NCBI GenBank assembly: GCA_963976865.1
Contig: CAXBLY010000003.1
Span: 11,154 to 75,153 of the forward strand
Source: an uncultured Gammaproteobacteria bacterium
GTDB taxonomy: Bacteria; Pseudomonadota; Gammaproteobacteria; UBA4575
Direction: 5' to 3'
Length of the DNA: 64,000 bases
Shown: piece after piece, positions 1 through 16,900 of the stretch
Layout: each line of letters opens with the position of its first letter
Numbering within the stretch: the stretch's first letter is position 1
Notes under the pieces: generated by a model
Told to the model about the DNA's origin: nothing
Databases searched by the model: none
What the model saw: only the letters and a program-made list of their open reading frames with translations
Program-made: the position numbers and the translations under genes

Positions 1-450
1 GCCATGAAAATGTCGATGACAGGAACATTTCAGTATGCAAGGCATTTGCCGCCTGTACCTATGTCAGATTTTAATGTCTTTCACCGTTATTCGGCAAATT
101 ACCCATGGGTGAGTCATGCGCAATGGTTTATCAGCCAAATGTTACGTTGGGGCCAAATTGAAAGTTCTTTGTCAATCTCAGAGTTAGCTGCGAATGTTTA
201 TCGTCCGGATATTTACGTTAGAGCAGCAAATGAATTAGACATTGCTCATCCATTATCCAGTACGAAGAGTGAAGGGAACCATAGCAATAATTGGCAACTG
301 GATAATTCGGTAGGGAATGTCGCTATGGGACCAGATGAGTTCTTTGATCACCGTATATTTAATCCATCACAAGTCATAGATTATATATACGATTTTGATA
401 TTTTAGCACCGCGAGTATCAAAGCAGGAATTAGTAGAAGCCAATGTATAA
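1..450 (+). CDS. 3' end of an NrtA/NasS-like nitrate-binding protein gene, truncated by the window edge. It could be a periplasmic NrtA or a cytoplasmic NasS-type sensor.
   Basis: The C-terminal 148 aa align with the C-terminus of the full NrtA at 5367..6782 (motifs SMTGTF, DFNVF.RY, W.xxQMxRWGQIE, VY.PDIY). The reading frame is open back to base 1. Confidence 0.6.
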   Translation, partial: AMKMSMTGTFQYARHLPPVPMSDFNVFHRYSANYPWVSHAQWFISQMLRWGQIESSLSISELAANVYRPDIYVRAANELDIAHPLSSTKSEGNHSNNWQLDNSVGNVAMGPDEFFDHRIFNPSQVIDYIYDFDILAPRVSKQELVEANV

Positions 451-626
451 ATATAAAAATATGGGGAAGAATAATTAATGAATATAAACTTTGAAATTTC
501 TGATGTTGGTATCGCAATCATTAGCCCTGTAGTAGAGATAATTAATACATGCATATATGACTGCAATTTCAATATTAATAATCATTAACATGTTATTTTA
601 AGATATCAATAATTCAGAGATACGCT

Positions 627-2813
627 ATGTTATTCGGAAGGAACAGTAAAAACCCAATTAAGATAACAGACAAGGGTGTTGTTACATGGAAATACGCTAC
701 CTGTGGTTATTGTTCTACAGGATGCTCAATTGAAATTGGCCTGGATAAAAAGGGAGAACCGGTAACATCAAGAGGAGTCTCTGATGCTGATGTTAACCGT
801 GGGAAATTATGTATTAAAGGGATATACGAACATGAGCTATTTCGTAAAACAAAAGGGCGAGGTAACAAGCCTCTTGTTCGTGATAATCGTTGGGATGAAT
901 TTGAAGAAACAAGCTGGAATGATGCGCTCGAGAAGACAGCTAGCCAAATAAAAAATATTCAACAAAAACATGGTCGTGATGCTTTTGCAATTGTATCGAC
1001 AGGCCAGATAATGACGGAAGAATTTTATACCCTGGGAAAATTAGCTCGTGGTGTGATTGGTACCAATAACTATGATGGCAATACGACACTATGTATGTCC
1101 TCTGCTGTCTCAGGCTATAAACGCTCATTTGGATCTGACGGTCCACCGGGATGTTATGAGGACTTTGAACATACTGAATGTCTGTTGGCCTTTGGATCAA
1201 ATTTACCTGAACAGCATCCAATAATTTACTGGCGCTTGATGGACGTGCGCGAAAAACGCAAATTTCCATTAATAGTTGTTGATCCTCGCGTCACTATGTT
1301 TGCCCAACAGGCCGATATACATTTAGCTATCAAACCTGGTACTGATCTAGTACTGCTAAATGCTTTGGCGCATGTGATATTACAAGAGAATTCACATGAC
1401 CAAGAATATATTAAACGGCACACCCAGGGATTTGATGAATTTTCCAAACTGGTCTCACAATATGACCCTGTCACTGCATCAAAAATATGTGGAATAGATG
1501 AAGATACTATAAGACATGTAGCTCGTGTGTATGCAGAAGCAGGTGCAGCAATGTCTATTTGGACGATGGGTATTAATCAGAGTACACATGGATCAGATGG
1601 TGTAGCAGCGATTAATAATTTACATTTGATCACCGGAAATATTGGTAAACCAGGGGCATCTTCACTTTCTATCACGGGTCAATGTAACGCCATGGGAACG
1701 CGCGAATGGTCATCATGTTCAGGATTACCAGGTTATCGTGCCCTGGAAAGTGAACAAGACCGTCTTGAAATTTCCCAGTTTTGGGGAGTAGACCCTGAAT
1801 TTTTTCCTAAACAACGCGGTATGTTTATGACGGACATTCTACCTGCGATTGAAACTGGGCAGATCAAGGGTTTATGGTTGGTGGCTACTAACCCAATGAC
1901 GTCAATGGCGAATACTACACGTATACGTAAAACATTAGAAAAGCTGGATTTCCTTGTTGTTCAGGATGCTTATTCAGATGTTGAAACGAATCAGTACAGC
2001 CATGTTTATCTACCCGCGGCTATTTGGGCTGAGAAAGAGGGGTGTTTCACTAACACAGAAAGACGCGTCAATATTATTCGCAATGTATGCGAGCCACATG
2101 GTGATTCAAAAACTGACTTGTGGATATTTAATCAAATGGCAAAGCACTTTGAGCGAGGAAAAAAAGTGATATTTCCTGAATCTGCAGAAGGTGTATTTGA
2201 AGAATTAAAAACATTATCAAGGGGTCGTATGCTGGACTATTCTGGCATGACCTACGAGAAGATTGAGCAGTCTCGTGGTATTCAATGGCCATGCAATGAA
2301 GAAAATGCTCCGCAAGGTACGCAGCGCCTATATACCGATGGTGTCTTTCAAACATCTACGGGAAAAGCAAATTTACTGGCATTACCATTTATTGATAATA
2401 ATGAACGTCCAGATAAAGACTATCCTTTCTGGTTGAATACAGGTCGAGTTGTAGAGCATTTTCATACGCGCACTCGTACTGGGAAAGTAGCAAATGGTAA
2501 TAAATTTAGTCCTACTCCATATATGGAAATGAACCCAGATGCTGCAACTAAATTAGATATTAAGCATGGTACGTATGTGCGTTTAACTTCTCGTCGAGGA
2601 GACGCTATCGTTATGGTTCAGTTAACACAACGAGTGGCGAAAGACTCAGTATTTGTCCCCTTTCATTTTCATGAGTGTGTCAATCGTCTTGCGCTGGGGT
2701 TATTAGATCCGCATTCGCGTCAGCCTGCCTATAAACAAAGTGCTGTGTGTGTGGAAAGAATTGAAGATCAACAGGATGCTGCACAAAAAAATTCTATGGC
2801 GAGGTCTTATTAA
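627..2813 (+). CDS. nasA: Assimilatory nitrate reductase catalytic subunit (NasA/NarB-type molybdopterin oxidoreductase)
   Basis: 728 aa. N-terminal C-x2-C-x3-C [4Fe-4S] motif (CGYCSTGCSIEIG) with no Tat signal. MopB-family motifs throughout. Sits between NrtA-like genes, and its stop overlaps the next start (TAATG). Confidence 0.75.
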   Translation: MLFGRNSKNPIKITDKGVVTWKYATCGYCSTGCSIEIGLDKKGEPVTSRGVSDADVNRGKLCIKGIYEHELFRKTKGRGNKPLVRDNRWDEFEETSWNDALEKTASQIKNIQQKHGRDAFAIVSTGQIMTEEFYTLGKLARGVIGTNNYDGNTTLCMSSAVSGYKRSFGSDGPPGCYEDFEHTECLLAFGSNLPEQHPIIYWRLMDVREKRKFPLIVVDPRVTMFAQQADIHLAIKPGTDLVLLNALAHVILQENSHDQEYIKRHTQGFDEFSKLVSQYDPVTASKICGIDEDTIRHVARVYAEAGAAMSIWTMGINQSTHGSDGVAAINNLHLITGNIGKPGASSLSITGQCNAMGTREWSSCSGLPGYRALESEQDRLEISQFWGVDPEFFPKQRGMFMTDILPAIETGQIKGLWLVATNPMTSMANTTRIRKTLEKLDFLVVQDAYSDVETNQYSHVYLPAAIWAEKEGCFTNTERRVNIIRNVCEPHGDSKTDLWIFNQMAKHFERGKKVIFPESAEGVFEELKTLSRGRMLDYSGMTYEKIEQSRGIQWPCNEENAPQGTQRLYTDGVFQTSTGKANLLALPFIDNNERPDKDYPFWLNTGRVVEHFHTRTRTGKVANGNKFSPTPYMEMNPDAATKLDIKHGTYVRLTSRRGDAIVMVQLTQRVAKDSVFVPFHFHECVNRLALGLLDPHSRQPAYKQSAVCVERIEDQQDAAQKNSMARSY

Positions 2814-4648
2814 TGTACAAATATCTGCGATCCAGCGAACATGATTATGCGTTAATTAAAAAGGCTGGTCACCCTGAAAAGAATTGCTATAACCATCCGA
2901 TAGAAACTGTTCCTGAAGGTAGTGAGCTTAGGGATAAGAGTCTTCATATCAATCATGATGATGGGATTGGTGATAGTCCAGATCGTTACAAACAGCATGG
3001 CTTTTATTTTGCAGCAGATAACTGTATTGCCTGCCATGCATGTGAGGCTGCATGTTCCGAGAAAAATGATCTGCCTTCACATATTGCCTTTAGGTCCGTT
3101 GGTTATGTCGAAGGTGGATCTTACCCATCTTACAGTCGTCTGAATATATCAATGGCGTGTAATCATTGTGATGACCCCGTATGTTTAAAAGGCTGCCCAA
3201 CGCGTGCTTATACCAAATTTGCTGAATATGGTGCGGTATTGCAAGATCCGGATATTTGTTTCGGTTGTGGTTACTGCACCTGGGTTTGTCCATACAATGC
3301 ACCACAGCTTGATCATGAGGCAGGTCAAGTTGAAAAATGCAATATGTGTGTCGATCGACTGGAAGTAGGGTTAAAACCAGCCTGTGTTTCTGCCTGCCTG
3401 GCAGGCGCATTGGACTTTGGTGTAATAGAAACTATGCCCGAGAACAGGTCACAGCTGGAGACAACGATCCCAGGCTTCCCTACCAGTGATATAACTCACC
3501 CTAATATTCGTTTTCAGCAAACCAGAAGCTTGCCTAATGAGATGAAACGAACGGATAGTATGCCTATTCGTTATGAAAAAAATATGCAAGGTGATTATCA
3601 ACCTGAAGTCGATGAAAGGTCGCACGTCGTGCAATGGGGCTTGAAAAAGTTAAGTACACGTGAAAACCCTTTAGTTGTCTTCACGCTAATTTCACAGCTA
3701 GTGGTAGGCGCATTTATATTTTTATTTGCCGGACCTGAACTGGGTATAACAACCATTACAGCAACCGATAATCCTGTTGTTTGGTCATTATTGTTATTTG
3801 CCTTAATTGGTGCGCAAACACTCGCGCTAGTTATGTCGACGATGCACCTTGGTAAACCACATCGTTTTTATCGAGCATTTAATAATTTGAGATATTCGCC
3901 TGTGAGTCGTGAAGTAGCAGGTATTGCTGTATTTTATAACTTTCTTGGAGCTTACACATTATTAACAGGCTTACCTGTATTATTCACGTGGATGCCCGAT
4001 GCAGCGTTATCTGTCCTCATTAGTATTTCTGGTTGGGGAGCCACGCTATCCGGATTAGTAGCGCTATATTTTATGCATGCCATTTATCGTATACCTGCAC
4101 GTCCATACTGGAATCACTGGTCTGTCTTAAATGCTTTCTACGGGTCCATGATGTCATTAGGTCCATTACTGGTTGGCAGTTTATATTTATTAATAACTAT
4201 GTTTACTCACTCGGGAATTGTTGGTGCACTCAATAGCATTGCACTAATAATAGGGATAGGGTTAAGCATAGAACTAATCGGACTAATTCTGCATGCACGC
4301 TACTTGAAGAGTCATGCTGGCGAAGCTGAAGCGTCTCATCATCAACAGACTACACAATTTGGTAAAACGTATTGGCTTAGAAATAGTTTATTGATGCTTT
4401 CAACCCTCATGATGTTTATGTTAAGCGTGATTAATATTGACACGAATGCTGCAATATTGTGCTGGTGGATAGCCACTATTATGATAATTGTCTCTGCAAT
4501 ACTGGGGAGAAGTCTGTTTTATGCCTTAGTCATACCAACAACCATGCCTGGTGCTTTCTTCTGGAAAAACAAAGGTTTTGAAGAACATGCAAGAGAAACA
4601 GGACTTGCTAGCCGAACAGAAGCAGGTGTGCTTGTTAATGTGCATTAA
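2813..4648 (+). CDS. Fusion of a DmsB/NrfC-like 4x[4Fe-4S] ferredoxin domain with a polytopic DmsC/NrfD-like membrane anchor. Putative electron-transfer partner of the nitrate reductase.
   Basis: 611 aa. Four Cys clusters (CIACHACEAAC, CNHCDDPVCLKGCP, CFGCGYCTWVCP, CNMCVDRL...CVSAC). The C-terminal ~330 aa carry about 8 hydrophobic helices. ATG overlaps the nasA stop. Confidence 0.65.
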   Translation: MYKYLRSSEHDYALIKKAGHPEKNCYNHPIETVPEGSELRDKSLHINHDDGIGDSPDRYKQHGFYFAADNCIACHACEAACSEKNDLPSHIAFRSVGYVEGGSYPSYSRLNISMACNHCDDPVCLKGCPTRAYTKFAEYGAVLQDPDICFGCGYCTWVCPYNAPQLDHEAGQVEKCNMCVDRLEVGLKPACVSACLAGALDFGVIETMPENRSQLETTIPGFPTSDITHPNIRFQQTRSLPNEMKRTDSMPIRYEKNMQGDYQPEVDERSHVVQWGLKKLSTRENPLVVFTLISQLVVGAFIFLFAGPELGITTITATDNPVVWSLLLFALIGAQTLALVMSTMHLGKPHRFYRAFNNLRYSPVSREVAGIAVFYNFLGAYTLLTGLPVLFTWMPDAALSVLISISGWGATLSGLVALYFMHAIYRIPARPYWNHWSVLNAFYGSMMSLGPLLVGSLYLLITMFTHSGIVGALNSIALIIGIGLSIELIGLILHARYLKSHAGEAEASHHQQTTQFGKTYWLRNSLLMLSTLMMFMLSVINIDTNAAILCWWIATIMIIVSAILGRSLFYALVIPTTMPGAFFWKNKGFEEHARETGLASRTEAGVLVNVH

Positions 4649-4669: not shown

Positions 4670-5041
4670 GTGCGAACACCATATATATCATCTAAAAAAT
4701 TATCAGAAATTGATAGTGAATTTGAAATGGGCGTGTTTGTGGTTACCTATCGGTCAAAAAAACAAAGGCTGCGCAGAAAGTTTGCTGCACTGATTCTTGC
4801 CCTCAAGCATGGGCTGAGAGGGTTCCTGTTTAGTTGGCCCCTGTATCTTCTCCCGTTCTCGGTGCTGGCAATGCCAGATCAATATAAATATCTGTTTATC
4901 ATATTTTCGTTGCCAGGTTTATATGTCTCTTTCATTATCTTAAAAAAAGGTATTGTTGAAGATTATTTGGAATTCGTCTCTGATCGCTTGCTAAATGATG
5001 GTTATGCCAACATGTTGCTATTTAATACATCACGGCATTAA
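4670..5041 (+). CDS. Hypothetical small membrane protein (weak call)
   Basis: 123-aa ORF with hydrophobic segments. GTG start with no clear RBS. It lies between the Fe-S protein gene and the nrtA leader. Confidence 0.2.
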   Translation: MRTPYISSKKLSEIDSEFEMGVFVVTYRSKKQRLRRKFAALILALKHGLRGFLFSWPLYLLPFSVLAMPDQYKYLFIIFSLPGLYVSFIILKKGIVEDYLEFVSDRLLNDGYANMLLFNTSRH

Positions 5042-5256: not shown

Positions 5257-5324
5257 TGTGACGCAATAACGACAAAGGCGTCATCGTGTTCCAGTACTTA
5301 GGAAGCACGTTGACGCCTTTTTTT
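5257..5324 (+). promoter_or_regulatory. 5' leader attenuator of the nrtA operon: an intrinsic terminator hairpin plus an overlapping alternative (antiterminator) hairpin
   Basis: Terminator: GGCGTCATCGTG (5277-5288) pairs with CACGTTGACGCC (5306-5317), followed by TTTTTTT (5318-5324). About 40 nt upstream of the nrtA RBS. The upstream hairpin TGACGC (5259-5264) / GCGTCA (5278-5283) shares the 5' arm of the terminator. Confidence 0.6.
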
Positions 5325-5366
5325 ATGGCCAATAATTTTATGGAATTCAATCCAAGGAGAGTATCT

Positions 5367-6782
5367 ATGAATCATGTTTGCAATTCACTCGCGCCAGCAA
5401 TGAATAACGTAATGGGGTATACCAAACATTACTTGATGGGTGCATTGATTGTTATGAGCATGATAATTGCTCATCATGCTTATGCTGAAAATCTTGGATA
5501 CCCGGAAAAAGAAGAGCTTAAATTTGGATTTATTAAATTAACAGATATGGCACCAATTGCCATAGCTTATGAAAAAGGTTATTTCGAAGATGAAGGCCTG
5601 TATGTCACAGTAGAGGCTCAGGCAAACTGGAAAGTATTGCTTGATGGTGTGATTGACGGGCAACTAGACGGTGCACATATGCTTGCTGGTCAACCAATCG
5701 CAGCCACAATGGGATTCGGTACTAAAGCACATATCATTACACCATTCTCAATGGACTTGAATGGCAACGGCATTACAGTTTCAAATGAGATATGGAAACA
5801 AATGAAACCTAATATTCCAACAATGGATGATGGAAGACCTCAACATCCTATTAAGGCAGATGCGTTAAAGCCTGTTGTAGAAAAGTATAAGAATGAGGGT
5901 AAACCTTTTAATATGGGAATGGTATTTCCTGTGTCTACTCATAACTACGAATTACGTTACTGGCTAGCAGCAGGTGGAATTCATCCAGGTTACTATGCTC
6001 CCCATAAGGGCGACATATCAGGGCAAATAGATGCAGATGCATTATTATCTGTAACGCCACCCCCACAGATGCCAGCAACCTTGGAGGCAGGAACAATTTA
6101 TGGCTATTGTGTGGGTGAACCATGGAATCAGCAAGCAGTTTTCAAGGGTATTGGTGTGCCTGTAATAACTGACTACGAGATTTGGAAGGATAACCCGGAA
6201 AAAGTATTTGGAATTACCGCTGAATTCGCAGAAAAGTATCCCAATACCACTATCAGAATTGTTCGCGCTATGATTCGTGCGGCAATGTGGTTGGATCACA
6301 ATGATAATGCTAACCGCCCTGAGGCGGTAAAAATATTATCACAGTCAAATTATGTAGGTGCTGATTACGATGTGATTGCAAATAGTATGACAGGTACTTT
6401 TGAATATGAAAAAGGTGATAAGCGTGAAGTACCAGACTTTAATGTCTTTTTTAGATACAACGCGACATATCCATATTACTCCGATGCAATTTGGTATCTA
6501 ACTCAAATGCGCCGTTGGGGACAAATCGAAGAAGACAAATCTGACAGTTGGTATAAAGAAATGGCTGCTAAAGTTTACAAGCCTGATATTTATAAAAAAG
6601 CGGCAATGACATTAATCGATGAAGGGTTAGCGAAGGCTAAAGACTTCCCGGACTTTGCTACTGAAGATGGATATAAAGAACCTCAAAATGAATTTATCGA
6701 TGACATCACATTTGATGGTAAAAAACCCAATGAATACATCGATCAATTCCCAATTGGCCTAAAGTCAGGCGATAAAATTTAG
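5367..6782 (+). CDS. nrtA: Nitrate/nitrite ABC transporter periplasmic substrate-binding protein
   Basis: AGGAGA RBS 7 nt before ATG 5367. Signal peptide ([17 protein letters not shown]). NrtA/CmpA-family motifs. Followed by permease and ATPase genes. Confidence 0.8.
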
Positions 6783-6812
6783 ATAATTAACAAAGTTTTG
6801 AAGGAAGTATAC

Positions 6813-7808
6813 ATGAGCGCTGCAACCTCTTTATCGACCAAACTGAATATGACAAACATTTCACCAAGAATCTCTGGTGTCATTGCCAATTCGCTGAAAA
6901 ATTTAGTGATACCTCTGGTGGGTATTGTATTATTTTTAGCTTTCTGGTCAGTTGCGGCCTCTAATATCAATACATCATTGGGAAAATTTCCTGGGCCAAA
7001 TTCTGTATGGACACAATTAAATTCCTTGTATGTAGAACATAGGGAAGAAAGAAAAAAAGAAACAGCATTTTATCAGCGTCAGGAAAAGAGAAATGCAGAG
7101 CGTGTTTCTCAAGACCCGGGTTACAAACCAAAGATTAGGGCATATACAGGAAAAGAAACATTTTTAGACCAAATTGTAACAAGTCTGGTGACAGTGATGA
7201 GCGGGTTTTTACTCGCGGCCATTATTGCTATTCCATTAGGAATAGCAATAGGCTTGAGTAAAACGCTAAATACTGCTTTTAATCCTGTCATTCAAATATT
7301 TAAACCAGTTTCTCCGTTAGCATGGTTACCATTGGTCACCATGGTTGTCAGTGCCCTTTATGCTACGCCTGATCCGGTGATACCAAAATCATTCCTGACT
7401 TCGATGATTACGGTAACACTCTGTTGTTTATGGCCAATGATTATCAACACTTCGGTTGGTGTCGCATCTATTAATTCGGACTTGGTTAATGTGAGTCGCG
7501 TGTTGCGTTTACCCGCATTAAAGCATGCGCAAAAAATTGTTTTGCCAGCATCTGTTCCGATGATATTTACTGGTATGCGCACATCACTGGGTATTGCCTG
7601 GATGGTACTAATTGCAGCTGAAATGCTCGCACAAAATCCTGGATTAGGGAAATTTGTTTGGGATGAATTTCAAAATGGAAGCTCGGATTCTCTAGGGAGA
7701 ATTATGGCTGCAGTGATAGTTATCGGTGTGATTGGCTTCATATTAGATCGTTCAATGTTACAGATTCAAAAATATGTATCCTGGGATAAAGCGACTGCAA
7801 GTCGATAA
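6813..7808 (+). CDS. nrtB: Nitrate ABC transporter permease
   Basis: Polytopic membrane protein with a BPD-transporter signature (EAA-like loop ...AAEML). RBS GAAGGAAG 5 nt before ATG 6813. Confidence 0.8.
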   Translation: MSAATSLSTKLNMTNISPRISGVIANSLKNLVIPLVGIVLFLAFWSVAASNINTSLGKFPGPNSVWTQLNSLYVEHREERKKETAFYQRQEKRNAERVSQDPGYKPKIRAYTGKETFLDQIVTSLVTVMSGFLLAAIIAIPLGIAIGLSKTLNTAFNPVIQIFKPVSPLAWLPLVTMVVSALYATPDPVIPKSFLTSMITVTLCCLWPMIINTSVGVASINSDLVNVSRVLRLPALKHAQKIVLPASVPMIFTGMRTSLGIAWMVLIAAEMLAQNPGLGKFVWDEFQNGSSDSLGRIMAAVIVIGVIGFILDRSMLQIQKYVSWDKATASR

Positions 7809-7845
7809 ATTTAATTACATACAACATAGTAAATGGAATCAAGTC

Positions 7846-8691
7846 ATGAGTGAGTTACTAAACATTAGTAGTGTGGATATGGTATTTCCAACACCTAAAG
7901 GAGAATTTACAGCCTTAACAGATATCAATTTAAAAATTGATAGAGGAGAATTTGTAACCTTGATAGGCCATTCTGGATGTGGAAAATCAACAGTGCTAAA
8001 TATTGTTGCAGGTCTTCATCAGGCAACATCTGGAGGCGTGATCCTTAATGATAGAGAAGTGACAGAACCCGGGCCGGAGAGAGCAGTGGTGTTTCAGAAT
8101 CACTCATTGCTTCCCTGGTTAACTGCCTATGAGAATGTTGAACTTGCAGTGAAACAAGTGTTTAGTAAAACCAAATCCAAGGCGGAAATGAAAGAATGGA
8201 TTGAGCATAACTTGCATTTAGTGCATATGGATCATGCTATGCATAAGCGCCCGGATGAGATCTCTGGAGGCATGAAACAACGTGTTGGTATTGCAAGAGC
8301 GTTGTCAATGCAACCTGAAATATTATTAATGGACGAACCATTCGGTGCGTTAGATGCGCTGACACGTGCACATATGCAAGACTCATTAATGGAGATTCAG
8401 AATGAACTCAATAATACAGTGATTATGATCACGCATGATGTTGATGAGGCTGTACTACTTTCCGATCGTATTGTAATGATGACCAATGGTCCTTCGGCCA
8501 CGATTGGTGAAATTTTGCCCATAAATCTGGAAAGACCAAGAGACAGGGTAAGCTTGGCGAGTGAACCAGAATATATTAAGTTAAGACAAGCAGTGCTTGC
8601 ATTCTTATATGAAAAGCAGCGAAAAATTGAAAGTATTAATACAAAAGAAAAAAGCAAGAGTAATCACGGATCAGAAGTAGCAGTAGCCTAG
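7846..8691 (+). CDS. Nitrate ABC transporter ATP-binding protein (NrtD/NasD-like)
   Basis: Walker A GHSGCGKST, ABC signature LSGGMKQR, Walker B LLMDEPF. Start chosen at the internal ATG (MSELLNISS), which avoids overlap with nrtB. Confidence 0.8.
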   Translation: MSELLNISSVDMVFPTPKGEFTALTDINLKIDRGEFVTLIGHSGCGKSTVLNIVAGLHQATSGGVILNDREVTEPGPERAVVFQNHSLLPWLTAYENVELAVKQVFSKTKSKAEMKEWIEHNLHLVHMDHAMHKRPDEISGGMKQRVGIARALSMQPEILLMDEPFGALDALTRAHMQDSLMEIQNELNNTVIMITHDVDEAVLLSDRIVMMTNGPSATIGEILPINLERPRDRVSLASEPEYIKLRQAVLAFLYEKQRKIESINTKEKSKSNHGSEVAVA

Positions 8692-8969: not shown

Positions 8970-10517
8970 CTAATATACATCTCGCAAGTAACGTTTGCTT
9001 TTAGCCATTGACTTTAAAAACTCATTGGCATCATGTTCATCCATGTTACCGTGCTCCTGAACGATTTTCTGTAGAGCATCATCAACATCTTTTGCCATTC
9101 TCTGTGCGTCACCGCATACGTAAAAGTAGGCGCCATCAGAAATCCATGACCAAATATCTTTTGCACATTCAAGCATACGATGCTGTACATAAATCTTATT
9201 ATCCTGATCGCGGGAAAATGCAGTGCTTAATTGGGTTAAACAACCAGTATCTACAAATTTCATCAACTCTTCTTTGTATAAAAAGTCACTCTCTTCATTA
9301 GGATTGCCAAAGAACAGCCAGTTTTTGCCGAGGTCACCACGCAGGCTGCGTTCATGCAAAAATGCCCTAAACGGTGCTACGCCAGTACCTGGGCCAACCA
9401 TGATTACAGGAGCATCACAGTCCTCTGGGAGTAAGAATTCATGAGTAGGCTGGATGTAAATGCGAACATATTCATCACTTTGAATGCGATGGGATAAAAA
9501 TGTAGATGCTACACCAACTCGATGACGGTCGCGTCTAGTGTATTCAACGACACCGACTGTGGCATGAACTTCGTCTGGGTGAGCTCGCAAAGTTGAAGAT
9601 ATTGAATAAAGGCGTGGCTGTAATTTGTCAAGTCGATGAACTAATTTTGAAGGATCAGTCTTTATACTTGTATAGTCTTCAAATAGTTCCAGTAAATCAC
9701 ATCCTTCATCAATGCCTTCTTCTGCTAGCGTTTTAAGCGCTAATTTTTCGTTTTCATTACTGGCACATTCGCTTAGATAGAGAATAGCATCGTCAGAGGG
9801 CTTAGTAATATCCAGGTAGTTGACGAGAAGATCGAATAAAGTATGTTCATAATTATCAAGTACGACAGTCAAATCTCCATCGACTTCTAAATGAGTAATA
9901 ATCTCTCTTGCTAATTCAGGCGGATTTTTAGGATAGATGCCTAAAGCATCTCCTGGTTGATATGTGATACCACTGTCAGCAAGGCTAATCTCTATATGAC
10001 GAATATCTTTACTGGAACCATTCGAAATGAGTGGTGTTACATGTTTAACTCTGGCTAAAAACGGGTTTTTACGATCATACTGAAAGTGTTTACTATTGTC
10101 TGATACTGAATTTATCTGAGATTCTGTTACTTCTTCGGTTGGCGCATTTGCCATTAAGCTCTTTAGTTGTTTTGAGGTTGGTCTGCCTCCAGGTGTACAT
10201 AATGTCAGCTCTGATTCTGCGCCTGTGACAATTGCTTCAGCATATGTTTTGCATAAGTATCCGCATTGTCCGCAATCTTGTTGTCCCATTACAGCCATCA
10301 CTTGCTGTTTAAATGGACGTTCTTTCGCCAGCTCTATGCGCTCTTCCAGTGGCAAAGTGTCATCATGCCATGGATAGTCTTCCTCTTCTAAGTCGATTGC
10401 TGTCGCTGTATCGGTAGTTGTGTTCTCAAGACCCATATAACCGACAAAGAAACCATTCAGCCATGCTCGCTGATCAGCACTAAACGGAGCATTTTCAGGA
10501 ATTATTTGTATCGTCAC
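8970..10517 (-). CDS. CysJ-like NADPH-dependent FAD reductase that lacks the flavodoxin (FMN) domain. Putative reductase partner of the sirohaem nitrite/sulfite reductase.
   Basis: C-terminal 380 aa align with the E. coli CysJ FNR module (RLYSISS, GPGTGVAPFRAF, C-terminal RYLRDVY). N-terminus has the CysJ-like AWLNGFF motif. A short CGQCGYLC segment sits where the flavodoxin domain would be. Confidence 0.7.
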   Translation of the reverse strand: MTIQIIPENAPFSADQRAWLNGFFVGYMGLENTTTDTATAIDLEEEDYPWHDDTLPLEERIELAKERPFKQQVMAVMGQQDCGQCGYLCKTYAEAIVTGAESELTLCTPGGRPTSKQLKSLMANAPTEEVTESQINSVSDNSKHFQYDRKNPFLARVKHVTPLISNGSSKDIRHIEISLADSGITYQPGDALGIYPKNPPELAREIITHLEVDGDLTVVLDNYEHTLFDLLVNYLDITKPSDDAILYLSECASNENEKLALKTLAEEGIDEGCDLLELFEDYTSIKTDPSKLVHRLDKLQPRLYSISSTLRAHPDEVHATVGVVEYTRRDRHRVGVASTFLSHRIQSDEYVRIYIQPTHEFLLPEDCDAPVIMVGPGTGVAPFRAFLHERSLRGDLGKNWLFFGNPNEESDFLYKEELMKFVDTGCLTQLSTAFSRDQDNKIYVQHRMLECAKDIWSWISDGAYFYVCGDAQRMAKDVDDALQKIVQEHGNMDEHDANEFLKSMAKSKRYLRDVY

Positions 10518-12304
10518 GATGCTATTTTTACCTCTTCTTTATGTTGTAATAACTCGAGTAATGTTTCACAGGTATTTCGTGCAGCAAATTCAAAGAAGGG
10601 TTCTGATTCATCTGTTCTATGTCTCATATACACTTCCAGGATATTGGCAATAAGTTGAGGAATCAGTTCTGCGTCAACATTTTTCATAAATTCTTTTGCG
10701 ATGGCCTGGGAGTCAGAAAAACCTCCACCAAGAAATACGTCATATCCGTCAATTGGATCTGAATCTTCACCCACGTCTACTTTAGTCGCAAGAAGACCTA
10801 TATCTCCGATGTAATGTTGTGCGCAAGAATGATGACAACCTGTTAAATGAATATTAATTGGTTGATCAAGACTGATTTTAGATTCTACATAATCTGCAAT
10901 ATTCGTAGCATGCAGTTTGGTATTTGCATTGGCAAATTTGCATCCCCAACTTCCTGTGCAGGCAATCAGGTTTGCTCGAATATTACTTGCAGTCCAATGA
11001 AGACCTAACGACTCTATTCTTTCTTTTACTGTATCAATATTTTCATTTTTGATATCAGAGATAATTAAATTCTGCCAAACAGTAAGGCGAATACAGCCAC
11101 TTCCATATTGTTCTGCAATATCAGCAAGTCCGTACATTTGTTCTGTTTCTATTCTGCCAACTGGACAGACTATTCCTATGTACGATAAGTCTTCCTGTTT
11201 TTGCTTGTGTACACCTATATGTGCCATACGATCGATCTTGGATCGTGTAATACAGTTTTCTAATGGGAACTTGACCAGCTCAAATTCACATTGTTCTGTG
11301 ACTGCCTGCATGAATTTCTCTAACCCCCAGTCATCAAGAAGGTATTTTAAACGTGCTTTATTGCGATCAGTTCGATCGCCGTTATCTATAAAGACACGGA
11401 TTACTGCTTTTGCCATGGGTATGCATTGCTCTGGTGTAAGAAGGATACCAGTATCACAGGCAAAATCTTCGTGACCGGTTATTCCACCTAATTGCATCCT
11501 GAAATAAACACCGGGTTTAATGCTATTCGAATTATCTTCAACTTTAACAGCTGCAAAACCAATATCATTGGTATCTTCAAGTACGCTGACAGCGCCACCA
11601 CCATCGAATGCAATATTGAATTTTCGAGGTAATCCATACATGTCTCTGTGATATAAAATATAATAATGTAATTCACGTGCTAGCTCGCGCGTATCATAAA
11701 TCTCATCAGCTGAAATTCCTGACAATGGGTTGCCTGTTACATTGCGAATATTGTCAGCGCCGGAACCACGATTCATAACACCAAGATCCTGCATTCCTAA
11801 TAATAGTTTAGTGGCATCATGTGCTCCGACTTCACGAAGCTGTAGGTTTGCACGAGTCGTTATATGTGTGTAACTCCCGCCATACTGGGAAGTGAGGTCG
11901 GCAATTCCCCTAAATTGTGTTGCATTTATAATTCCATTTGGCATACGCAGACGGGACATAAAAGAATTTTGCGCAGGCGCGACATAAAATAAGCCATGAA
12001 ACTTATATCGAAATACATCTACTCCTTTAGGAAAAACACCTTCATTAGCGTTTTTCACCATTTGATCCCAGTAATCAAATGGATGATGCTCACGTTTGGC
12101 TTTTTCTTCATTACATAACTTTTTACCAGCCTGTAAATACTTGTTTTGTGCCTGAATATGCAGTGCATCAGGATTGATTCCAATAGGGACGCCATAGTCG
12201 GATTCAGCTTTGGAACTGTCAGGCATATTTGTCTTTGCTATCTGCAAGCCACTTGCTAAACCTTCTAAATAACGCATTTGTTCAATGCTGAAATCTTCTT
12301 CCAT
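10514..12304 (-). CDS. Sirohaem-[4Fe-4S] nitrite/sulfite reductase haemoprotein (NirA/CysI family). The context favours assimilatory nitrite reductase.
   Basis: 596 aa. N-terminal MSRLRMPNG...ITTRANLQLR motif. Cys cluster motifs CTGSWGC and TGCHHSCAQHYIGDIG. Stop overlaps the downstream gene by 4 nt. Its leader carries an attenuator similar to the nrtA leader. Confidence 0.7.
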   Translation of the reverse strand: MEEDFSIEQMRYLEGLASGLQIAKTNMPDSSKAESDYGVPIGINPDALHIQAQNKYLQAGKKLCNEEKAKREHHPFDYWDQMVKNANEGVFPKGVDVFRYKFHGLFYVAPAQNSFMSRLRMPNGIINATQFRGIADLTSQYGGSYTHITTRANLQLREVGAHDATKLLLGMQDLGVMNRGSGADNIRNVTGNPLSGISADEIYDTRELARELHYYILYHRDMYGLPRKFNIAFDGGGAVSVLEDTNDIGFAAVKVEDNSNSIKPGVYFRMQLGGITGHEDFACDTGILLTPEQCIPMAKAVIRVFIDNGDRTDRNKARLKYLLDDWGLEKFMQAVTEQCEFELVKFPLENCITRSKIDRMAHIGVHKQKQEDLSYIGIVCPVGRIETEQMYGLADIAEQYGSGCIRLTVWQNLIISDIKNENIDTVKERIESLGLHWTASNIRANLIACTGSWGCKFANANTKLHATNIADYVESKISLDQPINIHLTGCHHSCAQHYIGDIGLLATKVDVGEDSDPIDGYDVFLGGGFSDSQAIAKEFMKNVDAELIPQLIANILEVYMRHRTDESEPFFEFAARNTCETLLELLQHKEEVKIAS

Positions 12305-12422: not shown

Positions 12423-12797
12423 GTCTGTTGATTCTCTAAGCGGCAAGCAGTTTGTTATCTAGCCTGCAAGGCTGAATCAAGTATATATTAGGTACAGCAA
12501 AAATCGCGCCATATGATACTTTCCTTTGGATGGACCTAACTTATTGTTATTTGGTAAAGAGATAAAGAATAACCGTGATATGCGTGCTGGAATGGTGCAA
12601 TAAAACAAATTTTTGCACCATAAAAGTTCACAAAGACGGCTAACCAATATGGGTTTAGTGCGTCATTGATTTACTATATGTAAGTGTCAATAATGTATTG
12701 AGAATCCTTCAGGTTTTTAATAAATAATAACTGCGTAGGACCTCTACTATTATCAGATATAGGGCAATAAGATAGTTTGAATATCAGGTCAGTTAAC

Positions 12798-13739
12798 TTA
12801 AGGCCCAAACCAGAATTCCAAATTCTTCTCCAGGAACTCATCAAAACGCATATAATGCGAACCATCACAGGAGAAATTCAGGCCTACCATGCCATTAATG
12901 ATATTTAGTGAACCTGATCTTAAGTATATATTCTCATCTGCAAACCGTAGTTTACGAAAAAGCTCAAAAATTGAGGCTACATCATTGGCTGGCACAATTG
13001 CCCGTTCATGATATGGCCGTCCTGGGTAGGCAAGACAGATATCTGGATCCACCAATTCATCTATACTTAATATACGGTAGGTAAAAGGGTCATCTACCAC
13101 CCATATTGTTGCGCGACTACTGGAGAAATGAAGCTTGCCATGGAAGATGCCAAGCTCAGTTATTAACTCATTCATAATATGCAAGACGTTATCCATATTA
13201 TTATCTAATTGGCTTTCAACACGTTCCTGATTAAACAATACACTGCGAATTGCAGGATCTCCCTTAATTTGACGCCAATTGCCCGGTTCCTGATATCCTT
13301 CCTTTATTCCGGGTAGTTCTCTTAAGTCAAAATCTGCACCGAGAAATCCTGCTATCTCACCCTTGATGCCATGTATTACCTGGATTGCAGTGAATGAAGG
13401 TCTTTTCCTGTTGCGGCTGATGTAGGCATCAGATAATTTGAAATCTGTTGTGCCAATGATGCCCTGCATATACGGGCGATCCATACGATCACGGCCAAAG
13501 TGCCTGCCATCTTTGCCTGTTTGTGTAATGTTGTCTGTTATCTGTTTTCCGTCAGCATCGAGAATAAAAAGATGCTTGCAATAGGTCAGCTGTGGAAACA
13601 CCTCGGATAACATTCGCTCAAGTTCATTGCGATCATTGAGCATGGGCATGCATTTCGCCGCAAGCTGATGCAGTTCCTTACTTAACAACGCTGTTATTTT
13701 TTCACGTTGTAATCGTATTGCCTGTCTGATATTACTCAT
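12798..13739 (-). CDS. Hypothetical cytoplasmic protein
   Basis: 313-aa ORF with no TM segments and no recognisable catalytic motif. Lies between the nirA leader/promoter and the czc operon. Confidence 0.4.
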   Translation of the reverse strand: MSNIRQAIRLQREKITALLSKELHQLAAKCMPMLNDRNELERMLSEVFPQLTYCKHLFILDADGKQITDNITQTGKDGRHFGRDRMDRPYMQGIIGTTDFKLSDAYISRNRKRPSFTAIQVIHGIKGEIAGFLGADFDLRELPGIKEGYQEPGNWRQIKGDPAIRSVLFNQERVESQLDNNMDNVLHIMNELITELGIFHGKLHFSSSRATIWVVDDPFTYRILSIDELVDPDICLAYPGRPYHERAIVPANDVASIFELFRKLRFADENIYLRSGSLNIINGMVGLNFSCDGSHYMRFDEFLEKNLEFWFGP

Positions 13740-13908
13740 ACCTTCACAATATTACTATATTTTACTGTGCTGACAAGTTAAGTGTACTTAATGACGATGT
13801 TCATATCGAAACATCAGATATTATGTATATGTTAGTAGTGATAAATTATGTAAAAGTAATTTTGTTAGCATCTTGTATGACTGGCTGGTATTTACCTGGC
13901 ATGTGAAT

Positions 13909-16900
13909 TCAGGTATTTTTTATTAATACATCAGGTTTTTTATTTGCCGCTATTTTCGCATCACCTGAGTGGATGATTCTGTACAATGCCGGCAGCACCA
14001 GAAGAGTGAGAATCGTAGATGAAACAATTCCGCCTATCACAACTGTTGCGAGAGGCCGTTGTACTTCTGAACCTATCCCGGTATTTAGTGCCATCGGTAT
14101 AAATCCGAGTGATGCTACCAGGGCTGTCATCATCACCGGTCTTAATCGCGTGATCGCTCCTTCAATGATGGCGTCATGTAACGATTTTCCGCTTTGTTGC
14201 AAGTTGCGAATGAATGACACCATTACTAGTCCATTTAACACGGCGATCCCGGACAGTGCGATAAAACCCACGGCTGCTGATATTGAGAAGGGAAGATCCC
14301 TCAAAATCAATGCCGCGACACCACCTGTTAGTGCTAATGGTACACCTGTAAAGATAATTCCTGCATCGCGTATTGACTTCAGCGCAATAACTAATGCAAT
14401 AATAATCACAAGCAAAGCCATAGGGACAACGACTGATAAACGCTTTGTCGCTGACTGTAAGTTTTGATATGTGCCGCCATATTCAATCCAGTTACCGGCA
14501 GGTATATCTACATTTTGATTGATAGCACCTTTAACATCTGTGACAAATGAACCCAGATCACGCCCGCGTACATTGGATGTGACGACGATACGACGTTTGC
14601 CATTTTCCCGAATAACCTGGTTATAGCTGGAGATTAAATTAAAGCTGGCTACCTCTTTTAATGGAACATACCCGCCAGACGTCAGTGGTACTGGTAGAAA
14701 CTCCAGGGCATCAGTATCGGTGCGCAGTTTCTCACTCAAACGTATGACAATATCTGATCGTTGATCTCCTTCATAGAATTGACTGACATTTGAACCACCA
14801 AGTAGTGACGCAATTAAATCCTGGACTTCCCTGATAGTTAAGCCATAGCGTGCCATTGCATTGCGATTCGGTTCAATGGTTAAGACAGGTAGGCCTGTGG
14901 ACTGTTCAGCGGCAACATCAGCACTCCCGTCAACTGATTTTATGGCTTTTTCTATTTGTTCACCAATTTCAATTAAAGTATCAAAATCATCGCCAAAGAC
15001 TTTAACTGCCAACTCTGACCTAACGCCAGCAATTAATTCATTGAAGCGCATTTGAATAGGTTGCAGAAACTCATAACGATTGCCTGGAATTGGGTCAACA
15101 ATCTCTTCCAGATCTTTTACCACATCAGACTTGAGTTTTGTTGGATCAGGCCACTTAGAACGAGGCTTTAAGATAATAAAATTATCAGCGACACTAGGCG
15201 GCATCGGGTCAGTAGCCACTTCAGGTGTTCCGATTTTAGTAAATACGCGCTCGACTTCCGGGAGTTTTTTGATTTCCAACTCCAATTGTTCCTGAAGTTG
15301 AATTGATTGTGATAATGAAGTGCCTGGAATTCTAAGCGCATGCATTGCTATGTCACCTTCATCCAGATTTGGAATGAATTCTGAGCCTAATTGACTGGCA
15401 ACAACGCCTGTGAGTGATATCAAGCCAATTGCGGCTAGTAATACTAACCATCTTAGCTTTAATGCAGATAAAAGTATGGGATGATAAATATTCTGTACAA
15501 ATTTGATAATAGGATTATTCTTCTCCTGTATCGGTTTTCGAAAAAATAATGCGACACAGGCGGGTACAAACGTTATTGATAGTAGCATCGCGCTGATTAA
15601 TGCCATTATTACAGTGAGTGCCATCGGGTGAAACATTTTTCCTTCAATGCCTGTTAGTGCCAGTATCGGTACATAGACAGCCGTAATAATGAATACACCA
15701 AACAGTGCTGGTTGAATAACCTCTTTAGTTGCATTAAATACAATATTAAAGCGCTCTTTTAAAAATTTATTCTGATCTTTTGTTGCGTCACTTAGTCTGC
15801 GTAAACAGTTCTCGACAATAATCACGGCGCCATCGACGATCAATCCAAAATCAAGTGCGCCAAGACTCATTAAGCTCGCGCTGACATTGTTGTGAACCAT
15901 GCCTGTAATTGTCATTAGCATGGCAATTGGAATGACCGCTGCAGTCAGGATTGCAGCACGGATGTTTCCGAGCAGCAAAAAAAGCACCAAAATTACAAGC
16001 AAGGCACCTTCGGTTAAATTTTTCTTTACAGTAGAAAGGGTTTTATCTACTAACCCTGTTCTATCATATACTGGGGTAGCAGTAATTCCTTCAGGCAAGC
16101 TCTTTTGAACTTCTTCCAGCTTCTCTGCGACTCGAATGGAAACTTCTCGACTATTTTCACCTATCAACATAAATACGGTGCTTAACACTATCTCTCGACC
16201 ATTTTGTGTTGCAGCCCCTGATCGTAATTCTTTTCCAATACTGACGTCTGCAATATCTCTAATTTTTATTGGTATCCTGTTATTTGTATGGACAACAATA
16301 TTCTTAAGTTCATCGATTGTAGTAGCTTGCCCTGGCACTCGCATTAACCATTGTGCACCATTATTTTCTATGAAACCGGCGCCACGATTATCGTTATTTT
16401 CTTCTACTGCTCGGCTTATATCAGATGTGGTTAATCCATATGCTAATAATTTTTCAGGATGAGGAGCAATTTGTAATTCTTTTTTGTAACCACCAATCGG
16501 GTTAATTTCTACAATACCAGGTACGCGCAGTAATTGAGGACGTATAATCCAGTCATGTACTGTGCGTAAATCTGTTGGTGTAATCAATGTTCCATCTTTA
16601 TTGCGAGCACCTGGCTCTGCATCGACAGTGAACATAAAGATTTCGCCAAGCCCCGTTGAGATTGGGCCAAGTGACGGTTCTAATGAATTGGGTAGGGTGC
16701 TTTTTGCTGTATTTAACCTTTCGCTAACCAATTGGCGCGCAAAATAAATATCAGTTCCGTCTTCAAATACAATTGTGACCTGAGATAATCCATAACGGGA
16801 TAATGAACGTGTATAGGATAATTTTGGCAGGCCACCCATCGCGCTTTCCAGTGGAAAGGTGATACGTTGTTCGACTTCCAGAGGTGTGTATCCCGGGGCC

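Follow-up and report, generated by a model that had tools for sequence, protein, structure and literature searches.

The textbook view of assimilatory nitrate reductases is of soluble enzymes that are fed by nicotinamide nucleotides (NAD(P)H), ferredoxin or flavodoxin. Can membrane quinol take the place of these donors? The question is raised by a 64,000-nucleotide stretch of DNA from an uncultured marine gammaproteobacterium (contig CAXBLY010000003.1, positions 11,154 to 75,153; the whole stretch is called the window here). The first 12 kb of the window, which has a G+C content of about 39%, form a nitrate-assimilation cluster, and at its centre two overlapping open reading frames (ORFs) encode a nitrate-reductase-like molybdoenzyme (ORF1) and a fusion of a four-cluster ferredoxin with a membrane anchor (ORF2). 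An earlier, sequence-only reading had proposed that this pair ties assimilatory nitrate reduction to the quinone pool or the membrane. On balance, we favour the view that ORF1 and ORF2 form a membrane-bound, cytoplasm-facing quinol:nitrate oxidoreductase that catalyses the first step of nitrate assimilation, and carriers of the pair probably take electrons for this process from membrane quinol and not from NAD(P)H or ferredoxin. Each building block comes from a known family; new, and apparently undescribed, is that they are combined, that two of them are fused and that the anchor is predicted to be inverted.

A nitrate-reductase-like gene coupled to a membrane-anchor fusion

The cluster runs in the order nasT-nasS-[ORF1/ORF2]-orf123-nrtABC, with a nitrite reductase on the opposite strand. 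The assimilatory setting assumed in the sequence-only reading is thereby observed directly, the pair being flanked by genes for the NasT/NasS regulatory proteins, the nitrate transporter NrtABC and a nitrite reductase. Both genes lie where that reading had placed them and overlap as it had described: they share a single base, which belongs to the TAA stop codon of ORF1 (2811-2813) and to the ATG start codon of ORF2 (2813-2815) in the context TTAATG. The pair and its parts are as follows (evidence in brackets).

627..2813, forward strand: ORF1, catalytic subunit, a cytoplasmic nitrate-reductase-like MopB protein of 728 amino acids with a molybdenum-bis(pyranopterin guanine dinucleotide) cofactor, Mo-bisPGD (Pfam, motifs, neighbour-joining tree)
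702..812, forward strand: N-terminal [4Fe-4S] (FS0) motif of ORF1, C26-x2-C29-x3-C33...C62 (translation; PF04879 at residues 20-65; alignment)
1092..1094, forward strand: codon of Cys156 of ORF1, predicted molybdenum ligand, in NTTLC156MSSAVSG (alignment with the ligand cysteine of Nas/Nap)
2811..2815, forward strand: TAATG junction of the ORF1 stop and the ORF2 start (read directly)
2813..4648, forward strand: ORF2, DmsB-like/DmsC-type fusion of 611 amino acids (Pfam, NCBIfam, AlphaFold2)
2813..2992, forward strand: ORF2 residues 1-60, family-specific hydrophilic N-terminal extension, no signal peptide (translation)
2993..3436, forward strand: ORF2 residues 61-208, DmsB-like ferredoxin domain with four predicted [4Fe-4S] clusters (TIGR02951, Fer4_11)
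3659..4528, forward strand: ORF2 residues 283-572, eight-helix DmsC/NrfD-type membrane domain (PF04976, AlphaFold2, Foldseek)
4529..4648, forward strand: ORF2 residues 573-611 and stop codon, conserved tail, predicted cytoplasmic, beyond the DmsC profile (alignment)

The catalytic subunit

ORF1 contains the domains Molybdop_Fe4S4 (PF04879), Molybdopterin (PF00384) and Molydop_binding (PF01568), all above their gathering scores. The start codon used is the earliest one available behind the preceding stop, which makes a longer reading frame impossible, and its N-terminus (MLFGRNSKNPIKITDKGVVTWKYATC) has neither a twin-arginine motif nor a hydrophobic region in the 25 residues ahead of C26, so the claim that the catalytic subunit carries no twin-arginine translocation (Tat) signal stands. 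A C-terminal Fer2_BFD [2Fe-2S] domain is absent from ORF1 by Pfam and present in the canonical NasA paralogue of a related locus (L073); since ORF1 has no such domain, it would need another electron partner.

Sequence scores alone are ambiguous on the identity of ORF1, and it is the active-site motifs that settle the assignment in favour of a predicted Nas/Nap type. The top NCBIfam score is that of the formate dehydrogenase model Fdh-alpha (TIGR01591), still below its cut-off (600 versus 666 bits), followed by NasC (NF047855; 538 versus 1100), NasA_Halo (NF041323; 482 versus 1000) and two NapA models (444 versus 904 and 424 versus 930). Sequence matches in the PDB are a mixture of FdhF-type enzymes and Desulfovibrio NapA, and the nearest annotated plasmid proteins are assimilatory nitrate reductases (33-39% identity), then FdhF (31-33%) and NapA (29-30%). 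The active-site type can be read directly from the alignment. Cys156 aligns with the selenocysteine (TGA) position of Escherichia coli FdhF, and the next residue is methionine, as in Nas and Nap, and not histidine, as in formate dehydrogenases. The second signature of ORF1, SITGQCNAMGTRE, contains TGQCNAMGTRE, which is of the Nas/Nap type TGQxNAMGxRE. The reference NasA, NarB and NapA proteins have LCM(A/S)S and TGQP(N/S)A(M/C)G at these two positions, and reference FdhF proteins have C/U-H or C-Q and RGQNN/RGHNN.

In a neighbour-joining tree of 36 sequences (706 columns, 200 bootstraps; references from annotated plasmid records plus paralogues in related loci), the ORF1 family forms its own clade (100%) within the Nas/Nap radiation and is split from FdhF with 95% support. 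A formate dehydrogenase reading, prompted by the Fdh-alpha score and the FdhF-type PDB matches, was rejected because the selenocysteine/cysteine-histidine pair and the active-site arginine are absent and the tree separates FdhF. The sequence-only reading had named grouping with formate dehydrogenases as an outcome that would count against it; the clade that was found, together with the Cys-Met motif, is not of this kind. The likeness of ORF1 to NasA/NarB that this reading had proposed needs qualification: the Nas/Nap motifs and the assimilatory context agree with it, but the family sits in a separate clade and scores below the NCBIfam cut-offs. Judged by the tree and the scores, the ORF1 family forms a distinct clade, and none of the characterised NasA, NasC and NarB enzymes is its orthologue.

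A further feature of the second signature is a private cysteine, Cys351, in TGQC351NAMGTRE (residues 348-361, window 1668-1709), where canonical Nas and Nap proteins have proline. It lies near the active-site funnel motif and is kept down to MopB partners that are 46% identical (L104).

The fusion protein, its orientation and its putative quinol site

ORF2 starts with a hydrophilic extension that is kept in close relatives and absent in distant ones, and neither a twin-arginine nor a Sec (general secretory) signal was found in the protein. The DmsB-like domain scores 161 bits with TIGR02951, below the equivalog cut-off of 214, and has 16 cysteines in four classical groups (C71, 74, 77, 81, 116, 119, 124, 128, 149, 152, 155, 159, 176, 179, 191, 195), which are invariant across 17 relatives down to 39% identity. 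The membrane domain matches PF04976 (DmsC) with 72.9-75 bits versus a cut-off of 22.3 and covers positions 6-275 of the 275-position profile. An AlphaFold2 model built from a 17-sequence alignment (predicted template modelling score, pTM, 0.72) has exactly eight transmembrane helices, with a predicted local distance difference test (pLDDT) score above 90, plus short amphipathic helices. In Foldseek searches the ferredoxin part matched ArrB and PsrB, and the membrane part ActC of alternative complex III and PsrC (TM-score 0.66, target-normalised). A tetra-cluster ferredoxin fused to an anchor of about eight helices, as the sequence-only reading had described it, is thus what the 16 cysteines, the full-length PF04976 match and the model show. 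Beyond the DmsC profile, the conserved tail reads PTTMPGAFFWKNKxFExHARETGLA..GV..H, with a near-invariant terminal histidine and, in the AlphaFold2 model, an amphipathic helix at residues 587-596; this tail may serve in docking ORF1 or contribute to the quinol pocket.

The side of the membrane on which the Fe-S domain lies was assessed by counting lysine and arginine residues between the helices of the AlphaFold2 model, with the linker, three loops and the C-terminal tail as the Fe-S-side segments. In all 17 family members these segments hold 13-24 such residues and the opposite loops 0-2. ORF2 of the window has 18 versus 0, and the bias is reversed in E. coli DmsC, with 2 versus 6; its partner proteins DmsA and DmsB lie in the periplasm. 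This charge bias is a direct count; with the positive-inside rule and the lack of export signals, it places the Fe-S domain, the quinol site and ORF1 all in or facing the cytoplasm. The ORF2 anchor is accordingly predicted to be inverted relative to those of the Dms, Psr and Nrf systems, with its Fe-S module cytoplasm-facing, which answers the topology question that the sequence-only reading had posed. A periplasmic orientation was rejected, given the absence of signals and the inverted charge bias.

That the membrane domain belongs to a quinol-anchor family, another point on which the sequence-only reading depended, is borne out by the full-length DmsC match, the PsrC/ActC folds and the alignment of residues at the putative quinol site. 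H345 and E367 of ORF2, both invariant in the family alignment, align with H65 and E87 of E. coli DmsC, residues that we take, from the DmsC mutagenesis literature, to be implicated in menaquinol binding. S342, in transmembrane helix 2, is also invariant, and all three residues are kept down to 39% identity. A serine in this helix has been described as strictly conserved in quinone-reactive NrfD-like subunits (PMC8076601).

Conservation and genomic context of the pair

ORF1 and ORF2 both occur in public gene calls from 8-9 contigs, and relatives of the fusion in the databases number in the thousands; the 120 best matches are all fused, about 611 amino acids long and at least 65% identical. In their source annotation these 120 are called only 'DMSO reductase iron-sulfur subunit' (DMSO, dimethyl sulfoxide) or 'DmsC/YnfH family anchor'. 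In a library of clusters at 50% identity, 557 clusters match the fusion at E <= 1e-30, and a scan of one genome per GTDB species gave at least 582 confirmed stretches (candidate species genomes), of which the best 80 were analysed as related loci. All 80 contain a single fused ORF, which matches end to end wherever the contig permits. Many carriers are lithoautotrophs and methylotrophs, and sulfur- and iron-oxidisers, methanotrophs and marine heterotrophs are all represented; the carriers include Thiotrichaceae, Acidiferrobacterales, Thioalkalispiraceae, Thiohalobacter, Thiobacillaceae, Gallionellaceae and Nitrosomonadales, as well as Methylobacter, Methyloglobulus, Methylomarinum, Methylophaga, Litoribacillus peritrichatus JCM 17551, Oleispira, Bermanella, Motiliproteus, Porticoccus and Hahellaceae.

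Co-inheritance of the two genes is strict. Wherever at least 700 nucleotides are available upstream of the fusion, an ORF1 orthologue (63-89% identical) lies directly upstream on the same strand (76/76 loci); as the public gene calls and these loci agree, the pairing is not due to chance. The percent identities of the ORF1 and ORF2 homologues correlate (r = 0.81, n = 60), and fusions that are only 29-47% identical still adjoin MopB proteins with 46-59% identity to ORF1, in which the same private motifs occur; the clusters of these distant pairs hold NarK, NirBD, PII and Amt, and their gene order is sometimes reversed. The edge of the family is marked by locus L100, in which a 450-amino-acid DmsBC fusion of another lineage lies 1.8 kb from, and not adjacent to, an unrelated MopB gene; not every DmsB-DmsC fusion belongs to the ORF1/ORF2 system.

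The nitrogen context extends to the relatives: a nitrite reductase, a nitrate transporter or nasT/nasS was found within 10 kb in 40 of the 51 loci that span at least 12 kb. The locus L004, with a fusion 81% identical to that of the window, has the order nasT-nasS-nirB-nirD-[pair]-orf-nrtABC; Litoribacillus has narK-[pair]...nirBD-nasT-nrtABC, and Methylophaga nirBD-phzF-[pair]-orf-NADH reductase-canonical nasA-porin-narK-kinase. What looked in many loci like an upstream gene for an 'NADH reductase' proved to be the N-terminal flavin adenine dinucleotide (FAD) domain of full-length NirB (810 amino acids, plus NirD, in L004). In the window and in Litoribacillus, the pair is the sole nitrate reductase of the cluster.

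Three further features of these neighbourhoods were seen. In nine genomes, a canonical NasA of about 880 amino acids is encoded a few kb downstream of the pair (L073, at 12505-16370, and L018, L021, L022, L031, L034, L061, L072 and L080), giving two different nitrate reductases within one assimilation cluster; the BFD [2Fe-2S] domain of the L073 protein is confirmed and a 408-amino-acid NADH reductase precedes it, with similar matches in L061, L072 and L080. In Methylophaga/Methylococcales-type loci, a gene of the PhzF family (phenazine-biosynthesis-like isomerase), with no obvious role in nitrate assimilation, lies between nirD and the NasA-like gene (L073, 6314-7249); it also occurs in L052, L054, L056, L060 and L071, and in L052, L054 and L060 it is found just after the fusion. 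A fusion of a PP2C phosphatase and a Ser/Thr kinase (about 580 amino acids) stands beside a NarK-type transporter at 19605-21338 in L073, at 6197-7960 in L103 and similarly in about 15 loci, which suggests post-translational control of nitrate uptake.

Proposed mechanism

In the proposed model, nitrate would be imported by NrtABC, and ubiquinol would bind to the DmsC-type domain of ORF2 at the cytoplasmic face, beside the Fe-S domain, in the pocket of H345 and E367. Two electrons would pass through the four [4Fe-4S] clusters of ORF2 to FS0 and on to the Mo-bisPGD of ORF1, which would reduce nitrate to nitrite in the cytoplasm, and the adjacent sirohaem nitrite reductase would reduce nitrite to ammonium. 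Ubiquinone has a potential of about +100 mV. Against this, the nitrate/nitrite couple lies at +433 mV (PMC10100899), so that the driving force would be ample. Because the quinol and nitrate sites would share one side of the membrane, quinol-dependent nitrate reduction is probably not electrogenic; proton release and uptake would both be cytoplasmic and the reaction electroneutral, unless the NrfD-like domain conducts protons. For sulfur-, iron- and methane- or methanol-oxidisers, the gain would be that costly NAD(P)H is spared, and heterotrophs would keep the proton pumping of complex I on the way to nitrate. More tentatively, and with rather less confidence than in the quinol:nitrate oxidoreductase itself, the pair may represent a third class of bacterial assimilatory nitrate reductase, membrane-bound and ubiquinol-dependent, with an inverted, fused DmsB-DmsC module, present in at least 80 verified species genomes and maybe proton-translocating through the NrfD-like domain. 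If it translocates protons, nitrate assimilation would be cheaper than textbook estimates or even energy-conserving.

Several points weigh against a quinol:nitrate oxidoreductase for assimilation. Complex formation between the two proteins and the quinol donor are deduced from homology and synteny only, and we also infer the direction of electron flow, the energetics and nitrate as the substrate. ORF1 is beneath every NCBIfam equivalog cut-off; the neighbour-joining tree is small and distance-based, and the position of the ORF1 clade beside NapA (78%) is not robust. The Fe-S domain, modelled without cofactors, is poor in the AlphaFold2 prediction (pLDDT 40-60). In relatives, nirBD lies immediately upstream of the pair, and NAD(P)H could still be the direct donor. 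Finally, the canonical NADH-type NasA is present in 8 of the 51 loci that are 12 kb or longer (nine loci overall); where both are present, the two enzymes may therefore differ in role, and the pair might not be assimilatory there.

Alternative explanations

The alternative that survives best, although we consider it unlikely, is that the pair is an electron sink or a respiratory, haem-free 'mini-Nar', through which quinol is oxidised with nitrate under low oxygen and the nitrite is detoxified or ammonified by NirBD or NirA; assimilation would then be a by-product or, where a separate canonical NasA is present, would be done by that enzyme. The architecture of the pair is indeed that of the respiratory complex iron-sulfur molybdoenzymes, and the co-residence of the canonical NADH-type NasA and its reductase in 8 of the 51 loci suggests a division of labour. 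Energy coupling could draw on the large difference in potential from quinol to nitrate; for NrfD-like subunits, a role in ion translocation has been proposed (PMC8076601). However, the pair lies inside assimilation clusters that contain NasT/NasS, NrtABC, NarK, PII and Amt, it is the only nitrate reductase of the cluster in the window and in Litoribacillus, and the quinol and nitrate sites are predicted on the same, cytoplasmic side, which would leave no redox loop.

Less probable still is an explanation in which the fusion serves as a tether and an electron wire and not as a quinol oxidase. Electrons would come from NAD(P)H by way of NirB/NirD or a CysJ-like protein, or from a soluble ferredoxin, and the DmsC-type domain would only localise the enzyme, for example beside the nitrate transporter. 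A precedent is the Paracoccus composite of NasB, NasG and NasC (operon nasTSABGHC), in which the nitrate reductase receives its electrons from a Rieske protein and the flavoprotein of nitrite reductase. In many loci nirBD is directly upstream of the pair, and in the window a gene pair for a CysJ-like protein and NirA adjoins it. For these reasons the proposal of the sequence-only reading that the fusion stands in place of an NAD(P)H partner is not wholly secure: ORF1 has no BFD domain and the nitrate cluster of the window was found to have no NADH-reductase gene, but the neighbouring CysJ-like/NirA pair and the nirBD genes of relatives leave NAD(P)H a conceivable route. A mere tether would, on the other hand, make it hard to explain an eight-helix domain that keeps S342, H345 and E367 without exception in relatives down to 39% identity, the window was found to have no NirD/NasG Rieske protein, and a chain of four clusters is the standard wire from a quinone site to a MopB subunit.

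That ORF1 is not a nitrate reductase at all and acts on formate, chlorate, iodate or a sulfur or arsenic oxyanion, its nitrogen context being coincidental or regulatory, is very improbable: the generic Fdh-alpha model as the top score, the FdhF-type enzymes among the top PDB matches and the private cysteine in place of proline point that way, but the selenocysteine/cysteine-histidine pair and the arginine of formate dehydrogenases are absent, the tree separates ORF1 from FdhF, and the nitrate-assimilation context holds across partner identities of 29-81%.

Other features of the window

The remaining genes of the cluster are listed below (evidence in brackets).

4..450, forward strand: 3' end of a nasS-like gene (NMT1_2), encoding the nitrate/nitrite-sensor partner of NasT (full gene on contig L001; tblastn conservation; 5' part and nasT outside the window)
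451..626, forward strand: intergenic leader 5' of ORF1 (weak sigma-70-like site at 585-613, TTAACA-17-AATAAT)
4670..5041, forward strand: orf123, small protein with two hydrophobic stretches (translation)
5286..8691, forward strand: nrtABC, nitrate ATP-binding cassette (ABC) transporter (NMT1_2; TIGR01183 ntrB; TIGR01184 ntrCD)
5286-6782, forward strand: nrtA (NMT1_2)
6798-7808, forward strand: nrtB (TIGR01183 ntrB)
7774-8691, forward strand: nrtC/D (TIGR01184 ntrCD, 351.9 bits, exceeding the cut-off of 291.8)
8970-10517, reverse strand: CysJ-like FAD/NAD(P)H flavoprotein of 515 amino acids (FAD_binding_1 and NAD_binding_1)
10514-12304, reverse strand: NirA-like sirohaem nitrite/sulfite reductase of 596 amino acids (two NIR_SIR and two NIR_SIR_ferr domains)

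A public ENA/Tara Oceans contig (L001), on which both proteins are identical in sequence to those of the window, extends past the left edge of the window and there encodes a Response_reg+ANTAR protein (nasT), then the full NasS (435 amino acids, PF13379, NMT1_2). A regulatory RNA in the leader between nasS and ORF1 was considered and rejected, its folding being no better than that of shuffled sequence (z = 0.13), and a search of the whole window against Rfam at gathering thresholds gave zero matches.

The small protein orf123, for which no Pfam match was found, is possibly an accessory subunit or an assembly factor. Of 73 loci, 22 have a homologue 3' of the fusion, every one of them a closer relative (L004-L045), and a role as a universal third subunit was rejected on this count. 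At the position of orf123, L073 has an ORF of 129 amino acids, likewise without a Pfam match.

The NirA-like and CysJ-like genes (8970..12304), presumed to account for the step from nitrite to ammonium, are themselves coupled, the GTG start of the CysJ-like gene overlapping the stop of the NirA-like gene by 4 nucleotides. The CysJ-like flavoprotein has no flavodoxin domain; its first 145 or so residues match no family and carry the cysteine motif CGQCGYLC...C. Next to the NirA-like gene is an ORF of 313 amino acids (12798-13739, reverse strand), which has no Pfam or NCBIfam match and is among the gene calls of the public contig. Elsewhere in the window, an ORF of 648 amino acids (54705-56651, forward strand) encodes an unusual fusion of a UbiE/MenG-like methyltransferase (residues about 67-177) and a D-Ala-D-Ala-ligase-like ATP-grasp domain (385-634).

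Implications

If the quinol:nitrate oxidoreductase is real, the electron and energy cost of growth on nitrate versus ammonium differs for a large set of environmental bacteria, and nitrate assimilation is coupled to how reduced or oxidised the respiratory chain is. The arrangement spreads far wider than one window and includes among its carriers many marine, freshwater and groundwater Gamma- and Betaproteobacteria. It makes what nitrate assimilation costs many environmental bacteria in energy accessible to experiment. Marker genes of the nasA type, as used in ocean surveys, would hide two mechanistically different enzymes. With the current 'DMSO reductase' and 'DmsC/YnfH' labels, metabolic reconstructions could infer DMSO respiration. 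The ORF2 anchor would also be the second inverted NrfD-type anchor after that of SoeABC, and thus a second system for testing how haem-free anchors handle quinol and protons.

Comparison with known systems

The known donors of assimilatory nitrate reductases are NADH (NasA/NasC of Klebsiella, Bacillus and Paracoccus), ferredoxin (NarB of cyanobacteria) and flavodoxin (NasB of Azotobacter). Canonical Nas enzymes have been described as soluble and without four-cluster or anchor subunits, and, according to Wells et al., the canonical four-cluster and membrane-anchor subunits are lacking throughout the Fdh/Nas/Aio/Nap clade (PMC7331816), a generalisation that their 2023 survey leaves unrevised (PMC10100899) and that the pairing of ORF1 with ORF2 contradicts. 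A 2021 catalogue of NrfD-like complexes lists 14 complexes with 15 NrfD-like subunits and includes no Nas (PMC8076601). A genome paper on relatives of the carriers describes the nitrate reductase of Ferrovum JA12, 73% identical to Sideroxydans Slit_0160 and perhaps of the ORF1 family, as assimilatory (PMC4725956). The remark of the sequence-only reading that it knew of no such arrangement in a described Nas system agrees with our search, in which no description of a DmsB/DmsC-coupled or membrane-bound Nas was found in the full-text literature, most subscription journals being outside its reach and an earlier description thus possible.

ORF1 resembles NasA, NasC and NarB in being a cytoplasmic MopB protein with an N-terminal [4Fe-4S] cluster, a cysteine ligand in C-M-(A/S)-S and the motif TGQxNAMGxRE, and its gene, like theirs, lies beside those for nitrate transporters, nitrite reductase and NasT/NasS. 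Unlike the canonical enzymes, it belongs to a separate clade (33-39% identical) below the NasC and NasA cut-offs, has neither a BFD domain nor a dedicated NADH-reductase subunit, and is always paired with the four-cluster/DmsC-anchor fusion. In outline, the pair would resemble NarGHI in oxidising quinol with nitrate at the membrane, in its cytoplasmic active site and in its four-cluster wire. It is, however, not homologous in the subunits that define Nar, the narG model reaching 43.8 bits versus a cut-off of 1084 and the narH model 50.5 versus 524: the molybdenum ligand is cysteine and not aspartate, the anchor is of the haem-free DmsC/NrfD type and not a dihaem NarI, and the quinol site is predicted to be cytoplasmic, hence without a redox loop.

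With DmsABC and PsrABC the pair shares the combination of a MopB protein, a four-[4Fe-4S] protein and an eight-helix NrfD/DmsC anchor, in which the quinol-site residues are kept. In contrast to these complexes, the pair has its B and C modules in a single polypeptide, carries no Tat signal, shows an inverted charge bias and has a catalytic subunit from the Nas/Nap clade and not from the DmsA or PsrA clades. NapA is linked to quinol through the poly-[4Fe-4S] ferredoxin NapG and the membrane protein NapH. A Nap/Nas-type catalytic subunit with a quinol module is thus common to both systems, but NapA is Tat-exported and periplasmic, and NapH is not of the DmsC/NrfD type.

The closest parallel in orientation is SoeABC, the sulfite:quinone oxidoreductase of Allochromatium and Aquifex, which is the only NrfD-type complex proposed to lie on the N-side (cytoplasmic) with an inverted anchor (PMC8076601). 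Compared by description, SoeABC differs from the ORF1/ORF2 pair in its catalytic clade and substrate, in having separate subunits and in delivering electrons into the quinone pool. The two systems are alike in their N-side peripheral subunits and inverted anchor, as predicted here for ORF2, and they are found in overlapping taxa, the sulfur-oxidising Gamma- and Betaproteobacteria.

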